From Anaerolineaceae bacterium (GTDB lineage: Bacteria; Chloroflexota; Anaerolineae; 4572-78), in the NCBI GenBank assembly GCA_024762375.1, contig JANTHQ010000001.1, positions 1-28,538 on the forward strand: a DNA stretch of 28,538 nucleotides, read 5' to 3'. How positions within the stretch are numbered: the first letter of the stretch is position 1; each line of letters begins with the position of its first letter. Shown here piece after piece: positions 19,481 through 19,650 of this stretch. The position numbers and the translations under genes were made by a program. The notes below the pieces were generated by a model, which saw only the letters and a program-made list of their open reading frames with translations, was not told where the DNA came from and did not search any database.

Positions 19481-19508
19481 TTTACAAACGCCCAAAACTC
19501 GCTATAAT
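19481..19508 (+). promoter_or_regulatory. Promoter of the metG leader transcript
   Basis: TTTACA - 16 bp - TATAAT; ATG 19515 lies 6 nt after the -10 (leaderless geometry). Confidence 0.7.
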
Positions 19509-19514
19509 AGAAGT

Positions 19515-19583
19515 ATGAATACGCTGAAATTTGCCATTAAACTGATGCCTATGGTTATGCCCTGCCGCACGACGGCGGTTTAG
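19515..19583 (+). CDS. Putative 22-aa Met-rich attenuator leader peptide MNTLKFAIKLMPMVMPCRTTAV
   Basis: ATG at the predicted transcription start; three internal ATG codons (19545, 19551, 19557) just before RNA segment 1; TAG at 19581. Confidence 0.75.
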   Translation: MNTLKFAIKLMPMVMPCRTTAV

Positions 19584-19650
19584 GCTGTATGGGCTGATTG
19601 TCACCCCTTTTCAAGCCACAACCGCACGTCTCCGTGCGGCTTTTTATTTT
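19564..19650 (+). terminator. Attenuator: alternative 1:2, 2:3 (antiterminator) and 3:4 (terminator) hairpins
   Basis: Terminator CCGCACG-tctc-CGTGCGG + cTTTTTATTTT. Antiterminator GCGGTT(19575-80):AACCGC(19620-25) plus GGCT(19583-86):AGCC(19614-17). Protector CCGC(19565-68):GCGG(19575-78). Confidence 0.78.

Follow-up and report, generated by a model that had tools for sequence, protein, structure and literature searches.

Upstream of metG, the methionyl-tRNA synthetase (MetRS) gene of an Anaerolineae (Chloroflexota) genome assembled from hydrothermal-vent metagenomes, a short Met-rich open reading frame (ORF) is followed by an intrinsic terminator, and the question is what this arrangement does for the gene behind it. 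We analyzed the whole 28,538-nt stretch of DNA carrying it (the window), a sequence whose listed runs are all DNA runs of such metagenomes, together with metG upstream regions from across the phylum. With a probability of roughly 80%, the leader would be a ribosome-mediated (leader-peptide) transcription attenuator that senses the supply of charged elongator Met-tRNA, and it most likely raises MetRS synthesis when charged Met-tRNA is scarce.

A preliminary description of this DNA had listed a TTTACA-16-TATAAT promoter, an ATG 6 nt after the -10 box, a 22-codon ORF with three clustered internal Met codons, and a GC-rich terminator with a U-tract. All of these were found in place in the sequence between 19200 and 19900 (Table 1). 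The promoter has 11 of 12 consensus matches and is the top promoter-like site in a scan of 18500-22500. Transcription from a sigma-70 promoter usually begins about 7 nt after the -10 box, so the transcript should begin on the A of the leader ATG, which lies 6 nt 3' of the box, and would be a leaderless mRNA. The terminator stem contains seven pairs (19622-28/19633-39), six of them G-C, closed by a TCTC loop and followed by CTTTTTATTT / CTTTTTATTTTT. The metG start lies 68 nt after the terminator, and metG is the sole MetRS match in the assembly.

Table 1 Features of the metG leader region, in window coordinates.
Feature	Position	Strand	Basis or remark
Stop of family-2 glycosyltransferase (GT2) gene	19462	+	Pfam PF00535; 160 nt 5' of the hairpin
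-35 box TTTACA	19481..19486	+	Promoter scan; unchanged in four same-genus relatives
-10 box TATAAT, 16-nt spacer from -35 box	19503..19508	+	Sequence, promoter scan
Leader ORF, 22 codons, MNTLKFAIKLMPMVMPCRTTAV, stop TAG 19581-83	19515..19583	+	Predicted leaderless; predicted transcript start is the A of the ATG
Putative regulatory Met codons M-P-M-V-M (19545-47, 19551-53, 19557-59)	19545..19559	+	Three Met within five codons
Segment 1, GCCGCAC	19564..19570	+	Pairs with segment 2 locally, or with the terminator 3' arm in free RNA
Segment 2, antiterminator 5' strand	19571..19586	+	Pairs with 19614-30; covers last codons and stop codon
Variable spacer with small inner hairpin	19587..19613	+	Folding; poorly conserved, length varies among relatives
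Segment 3, antiterminator 3' strand, including terminator 5' arm CCGCACG (19622-28)	19614..19630	+	Folding
Segment 4, terminator 3' arm CGTGCGG plus C19640	19633..19640	+	Folding; terminator scan
U-tract TTTTTATTTTT	19641..19651	+	Sequence
Spacer with TCGTCAT/TCGTCAC heptamer copies and metG Shine-Dalgarno AAGGAG (19694-99)	19652..19707	+	Sequence
metG, methionyl-tRNA synthetase, 591 aa; putative regulated gene	19708..21483	+	Pfam PF09334, E 1.3e-145

Several further features of the neighborhood can be recorded here. The heptamer copies TCGTCAT and TCGTCAC lie at 19652-19690, between the terminator and the metG ribosome-binding site, and resemble heptamer mosaics elsewhere in the window; other heptamer runs (TGGTCAT, TCATAAT, CAACTCT) occupy the same place in relatives, at loci including L002, L004, L008, and L023. 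A tRNA cluster on the plus strand at 14810-15053 contains tRNA-Pro(TGG), tRNA-Gly(TCC), and tRNA-Met(CAT), the last of which may be the initiator, the elongator, or tRNA-Ile2. The upstream neighbor at 17202-18563 encodes a B12-binding radical SAM protein (PF04055, PF02310), and the gene directly after metG, at 21494-22327, encodes a single-domain KaiC-like ATPase (PF06745).

The leader RNA from 19515 to 19650 is strongly structured, at -44.6 kcal/mol (z = -3.35 relative to shuffled sequences), and can adopt several alternative pairings. The local 1:2 hairpin (GCCGC/GCGGU) amounts to -7.2 kcal/mol and the 3:4 terminator alone to -11.2 kcal/mol. The 2:3 antiterminator duplex, in which 19571-86 pairs with 19614-30 and which uses the 5' strand of the terminator, reaches -20.9 kcal/mol, an energy that is marginal when compared with shuffles (z about -1.4). 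An antiterminator between 19575-86 and 19614-25 had been proposed earlier; this pairing is real and forms part of the longer duplex. In the fold of the free RNA, 19564-70 pairs with 19634-40, 19571-80 with 19620-30, and 19583-86 with 19614-17, giving one long hairpin with its base stem directly next to the U-tract.

We modeled a translating ribosome by masking the RNA that it would cover. With the A site on 19557, which leaves the RNA free from 19570-72 onward, the antiterminator forms and the 3' arm of the terminator is single-stranded. With the A site on either of the two earlier Met codons, at 19545 or 19551 (RNA free from 19559 or 19565), the long hairpin abutting the U-tract returns, and with the A site on the stop codon (RNA free from 19595) only the 3:4 terminator is formed. 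The masking geometry of the preliminary description was reproduced in its three states by these folds, with a correction to the role of segment 1, which also pairs with the terminator 3' arm, so that untranslated RNA folds into the long hairpin. The stalled state is finely balanced, as one extra masked base (RNA free from 19573) restores the terminator as the minimum-energy fold. The switch appears in masked folds of the window and of some relatives; in many others the terminator is still the minimum-energy fold under masking, which calls for a kinetic switch of the kind seen in classical attenuators. For this reason the position of the antiterminator strand, rather than the masked minimum-energy fold, was taken as the evidence across relatives. 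Separately, in two leaders of the same genus (L004 and L005) the 1:2 hairpin CTGCCGCTCGGCGGCGG is followed by TTTTGG, which could be a pause site or a weak early terminator.

These alternatives suggest how the leader would work. Transcription is predicted to begin at the A of the ATG at 19515, and the ORF would be translated as a leaderless mRNA. When charged Met-tRNA is scarce, the ribosome would stall with 19557 in its A site, covering segment 1 and leaving segment 2 (19571-86) free. Segment 2 would then capture segment 3 (19614-30) once that is made, the terminator 5' arm would be occupied, and with no hairpin before the U-tract RNA polymerase would continue into metG. When Met-tRNA is plentiful, the ribosome would reach the stop codon at 19581 and cover segment 2, so that the 3:4 terminator (19622-39) would form and the transcript would end near 19645. 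If the leader is not translated at all, segment 1 would pair with segment 4 and segment 2 with segment 3, forming a single long hairpin that ends at the U-tract, and transcription should stop here too.

A conserved short ORF with Met codons, accompanied by conserved stems, had been suggested as a target for a search before metG in Chloroflexota, and this search was positive. We compiled 197 distinct metG upstream regions from 40 same-order relatives, 80 named genome contigs, and 100 genomes across the phylum, and looked for short ORFs of 8-80 codons with at least three ATG codons within seven. Such Met-cluster ORFs occur in 53 of the 197 regions, 51 of 125 in the Anaerolineae and 2 of 72 in other classes; related genomes are non-independent samples in these and all other counts over the 197 regions. 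The criterion misses a simpler form. A relaxed scan found 11-12 more Anaerolineae loci in which a leaderless ORF has two Met codons only, as M-R-M (L043, L051, L052, L054, L057, L059, L065, L072, L074, L109, and L113), and once these are included about half of the sampled Anaerolineae have a Met leader.

Chance does not readily account for these clusters. In the first 97 distinct regions, 32 contain a Met-cluster ORF on the sense strand, whereas the antisense strand has 2, and 200 shuffles average 0.69 with no more than 4 in any of them. The same scan with any other codon gave 7 at most, and ATG is the sole codon that is strongly enriched. Met clusters are about 10-fold or more above every control. 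The 5.2 Mb of strand in this assembly contain 306 Met-cluster short frames, a rate of about 0.03 per 500 nt, and nearly all of them lie within genes; once a terminator and a downstream gene are required, metG is the only convincing case in the genome. Other candidate leaders in the genome (His-rich, Thr-rich, and one Met-rich) were rejected, being the tails of upstream genes.

The rest of the architecture travels with the Met cluster. An intrinsic terminator lies between the cluster and metG in all 53 loci, and in 40 of them the leader starts 4-9 nt after a sigma-70-like promoter (7 nt in 26, 6 nt in 10, another distance in 4), which indicates that these leaders are leaderless. Of the remaining ATGs in the regions, only 1.8% have a promoter at this spacing. 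The promoter threshold was at least 9 of 12 matches, and the start with the best promoter was chosen among in-frame candidates, which inflates the leaderless figure somewhat. After the start codon, Met makes up 14% of leader residues. Leaders of other families share the design only, as in MNPILAMAFMMRDMMMRPSRWRG..., MNAHRHSIGMMVMRYPRRDRRWALTSA, and MNFKPAFPMVLITMAMRTMRMEMSCCAEWKAR.

Some loci depart from the common plan. The two non-Anaerolineae loci with a Met-cluster ORF and terminator (L176 and L194) could reflect an independent origin or transfer; L176 is leaderless, with TATGAT, 7 nt, and then the ATG. At L020, L022, and L027, a Met-rich leader with up to seven internal Met codons is not leaderless and instead lies about 55 nt after the promoter, behind a purine-rich stretch. 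The same three loci have an extended -10-like sequence, TGGTACAAT or TGGTGCAAT, after the terminator, which suggests a second, unregulated metG promoter. One genus (L019, L024, L028, and L030) has, about 50-110 nt upstream of metG, a TTGACA promoter with the hairpin GCGGCATG...CATGCCGC and a U-run almost immediately behind it. Both arms of its stem contain ATG, the region has no Met-cluster ORF, and the hairpin may belong to a different metG attenuator.

We located the antiterminator relative to the Met cluster in each leader by taking the strongest partner of the terminator 5' arm between the last Met codon and the terminator. In 60% of leaders the first paired base of this partner is +12 to +21 nt away from the last Met codon; were its position uniform, 19% would be expected. 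The most frequent value is +16 nt (14 leaders), and in the window the pairing starts at +14 to +16 nt. By established toeprint and footprint geometry, a ribosome shields about 12-15 nt past the codon in its A site, so the antiterminator strand begins just where the stalled ribosome would end. Together with the recurrence of the Met-cluster ORF and terminator in mostly leaderless form in the Anaerolineae, this supports the Met-sensing attenuator put forward in the preliminary description. The distance to the stop codon is not fixed, lying 24-75 nt after the last Met codon across leaders, which is a weakness of this reading.

The terminator and the peptide also appear to change together. Terminator arms vary by family (CCGCACG, GCCGCGCC, CCGTCTGTCC, GGCTGTCC, and others), and each leader ORF contains the matching complement. 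This complementarity of the ORF to its own terminator arm accounts for conserved peptide motifs such as RRDRR and WRG. Among 29 dissimilar leaders, the duplex formed with a leader's own arm has a mean of -13.2 kcal/mol and crossed pairs a mean of -10.7 kcal/mol, and none of 10,000 permutations was as low.

The rival that survives best is an attenuator with a signal other than Met-tRNA charging, either the overall rate of translation, as for ermC and pyrBI leaders, or a metabolite or protein that binds the RNA. The weak thermodynamic switch in many relatives would fit such a signal, as would the leader at L006, where the ORF ends within the 5' arm of the terminator, like coupling-type attenuators such as pyrBI. 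The genus with a promoter-proximal terminator before metG and no Met-cluster ORF points the same way. We nonetheless consider this rival improbable, since a signal of this kind would not explain why ATG alone is strongly enriched or why the last Met codon keeps a fixed distance from the antiterminator. This rival is further disfavored by the shortness of the leader, its variable middle part, and the lack of a match to any Rfam family.

A Met-sensing attenuator also fits the gene order better than a terminator that serves the gene upstream. Under this second rival, the hairpin would do no more than end the GT2 transcript or some short non-coding RNA, the Met-rich frame would be there by chance, and metG would be transcribed from a promoter of its own, further downstream. 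The GT2 gene does end on the same strand only 160 nt before the hairpin, and two other cases of a small ORF with a terminator in this genome are tails of upstream genes. On the other hand, a near-consensus promoter separates the GT2 stop from the leader ORF, and the promoter scan found no promoter-like site between the terminator and metG. In three relatives (L009, L014, and L023) the GT2 gene abuts metG without a leader, and elsewhere the ORF, Met cluster, and terminator recur before metG behind varied upstream genes. The element is therefore a separate insert tied to metG, and the attenuator can be present or absent within a conserved gene order. With Met clusters also exceeding every control, we regard the GT2-terminator explanation as very improbable.

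Relatives from the same genus or family, whose MetRS is 77-96% identical, keep the promoter, the leaderless ATG, a K-L-M-P-M-[V/I]-M core, segments 1 and 2, and the terminator, and the counterpart of the spacer 19587-19613 differs among them in both sequence and length. In six sequences (MetRS 77-100% identical), the ATG, CCT, and ATG codons of the Met block are invariant and the rest of the block nearly so. Within this family, leader codons 2, 4, 5, and 10 show synonymous changes only (AAT/AAC; CTG/TTG/CTT; AAA/AAG). These codons, and a promoter that places the start codon at the 5' end of the RNA, favor the prediction that the leader ORF is translated. In the alignment of the six sequences, paired cells make up 100% of the 1:2 helix, 94% of 2:3, and 95% of 3:4. 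C-to-U and A-to-G changes in the terminator 5' arm preserve both alternative pairings. The changes are one-sided only, with no compensatory double substitutions among the six own-family sequences, and covariation at this level is weak.

A functional Met-rich micropeptide (for example, metal-binding or membrane) or a trans-acting small RNA with incidental adjacency to metG would suit the MN.LK N-terminus and KLMPM[VI]M core conserved in this family through synonymous changes, and attenuator RNAs and leader peptides are reported to act in trans in Sinorhizobium, but we see very little room for it, since peptides of different leader types share only Met clusters and residues dictated by terminator pairing, the place before metG with an intervening terminator is constant, and a role in trans would supplement attenuation in cis, not substitute for it.

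Sensing of Met by a leader peptide has a conceptual problem of its own, as initiation on the leader needs fMet-tRNA, which is also a product of MetRS. Severe starvation could therefore abolish the sensing ribosome itself. Since the Met codon is also the start codon and the leader appears leaderless, the switch may read both MetRS products, with fMet-tRNA loading the ribosome at the 5' end and elongator Met-tRNA carrying it past the Met cluster. If so, the response would be band-pass, in which ample Met-tRNA gives termination, a moderate shortage gives read-through, and a failure of initiation gives termination again through the long 1:4/2:3 hairpin. The leader would in that case represent a stand-in for the T-box at metG across the Anaerolineae as a class. 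We offer this extension tentatively and consider it on balance doubtful.

Met stands apart from other sensed amino acids, since AUG doubles as the start codon and one enzyme, MetRS, charges initiator and elongator tRNA alike. The element is spread over a class of mostly uncultured Chloroflexota with most copies leaderless. The leaders provide a comparative data set for attenuator evolution, in which the terminator and peptide change together and the distance between the Met codons and antiterminator is constant. They also provide an annotation rule for metG leaders in metagenome-assembled genomes and could serve as compact Met-tRNA sensors for coupled transcription-translation systems.

Comparison with described regulators indicates which parts of this design are familiar. 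At the Rfam gathering score, the window contains no T-box, riboswitch, SAM- or Met-related riboswitch, or His, Leu, Thr, Trp, or Phe leader, and with E-values up to 10 the region 19400-19760 gave only a chance lysine-riboswitch match on the other strand. In 20 metG upstream regions from other Chloroflexota classes, Rfam identified one tRNA and nothing else, and no T-box. We found no description of a Met leader for metG in the published literature searched, and none is mentioned in the comparative attenuator studies of Naville and Gautheret 2010 and Korolev et al. 2016.

The proposed mechanism is of a known type, that of a classical trp-type attenuator. What appears to be undescribed is its specificity for Met, metG as its target, and a mostly leaderless family spread through a whole class. 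Leader-peptide attenuators are textbook systems for Trp, His, Leu, Thr, Phe, and Ile/Val. Like the E. coli and Salmonella examples (trpL, hisL, leuL, thrL, pheL, and ilv), the metG leader has a short ORF in which codons for the sensed amino acid are clustered, alternative 1:2, 2:3, and 3:4 hairpins, and a terminator before the structural gene, with a stalled ribosome predicted to select the antiterminator. It differs from them in its use of AUG (Met), in being apparently leaderless rather than Shine-Dalgarno-led, in targeting a tRNA synthetase gene, and in its Anaerolineae host, and it has no sequence relation to them and no Rfam leader match.

The classical synthetase example is the E. coli pheST attenuator with its pheM leader peptide. 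There too, the leader peptide of a synthetase gene contains many residues of the cognate amino acid, and control is by termination and antitermination, so that the enzyme level tracks the charging of its own tRNA. The pheST leader is Shine-Dalgarno-led, reads Phe, and belongs to the Proteobacteria, whereas that of metG is predicted to be leaderless, to read Met, and is found in the Chloroflexota. In the Firmicutes, metS and metG are typically controlled by T-box riboswitches of 200-300 nt with a conserved T-box sequence, which bind tRNA directly and need no translation. The physiological logic predicted here is alike, in that uncharged tRNA-Met lets transcription pass a terminator ahead of the synthetase gene.

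The closest parallels in leaderless form are actinobacterial. The preliminary description knew of no characterized Met-codon attenuator; this stands for metG, for which none was found in the literature searched, and needs to be qualified for Met codons in general, as a predicted leaderless leader, metL, has been published before metNIQ in Streptomyces lividans (PMC8079986). It is one of eight leader peptides, most of them reported as transcribed leaderless, from an RNA-seq reannotation of strain TK24, which also places leuL2 before leuS, trpL2 before trpS, alaL before alaS, and thrL before thrS (PMC8079986). The Met dependence of metL is a proposal that draws on a single genome, with neither comparative nor functional backing (PMC8079986). 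These leaders resemble that of metG in being leaderless short ORFs before amino-acid and synthetase genes (PMC8079986). metL itself differs, as it precedes a Met importer, has two internal Met codons interleaved with Cys and no clear intrinsic terminator, and belongs to the Actinobacteria. In mycobacteria, leaderless polycysteine short ORFs sense Cys and act on translation by occluding a Shine-Dalgarno sequence (10.1101/834739). They share with the metG leader, as predicted here, a leaderless sensory ORF, clustered codons for the sensed amino acid, and control of downstream genes by ribosome occupancy, whereas they operate without an intrinsic terminator, at the level of translation, and on Cys (10.1101/834739).
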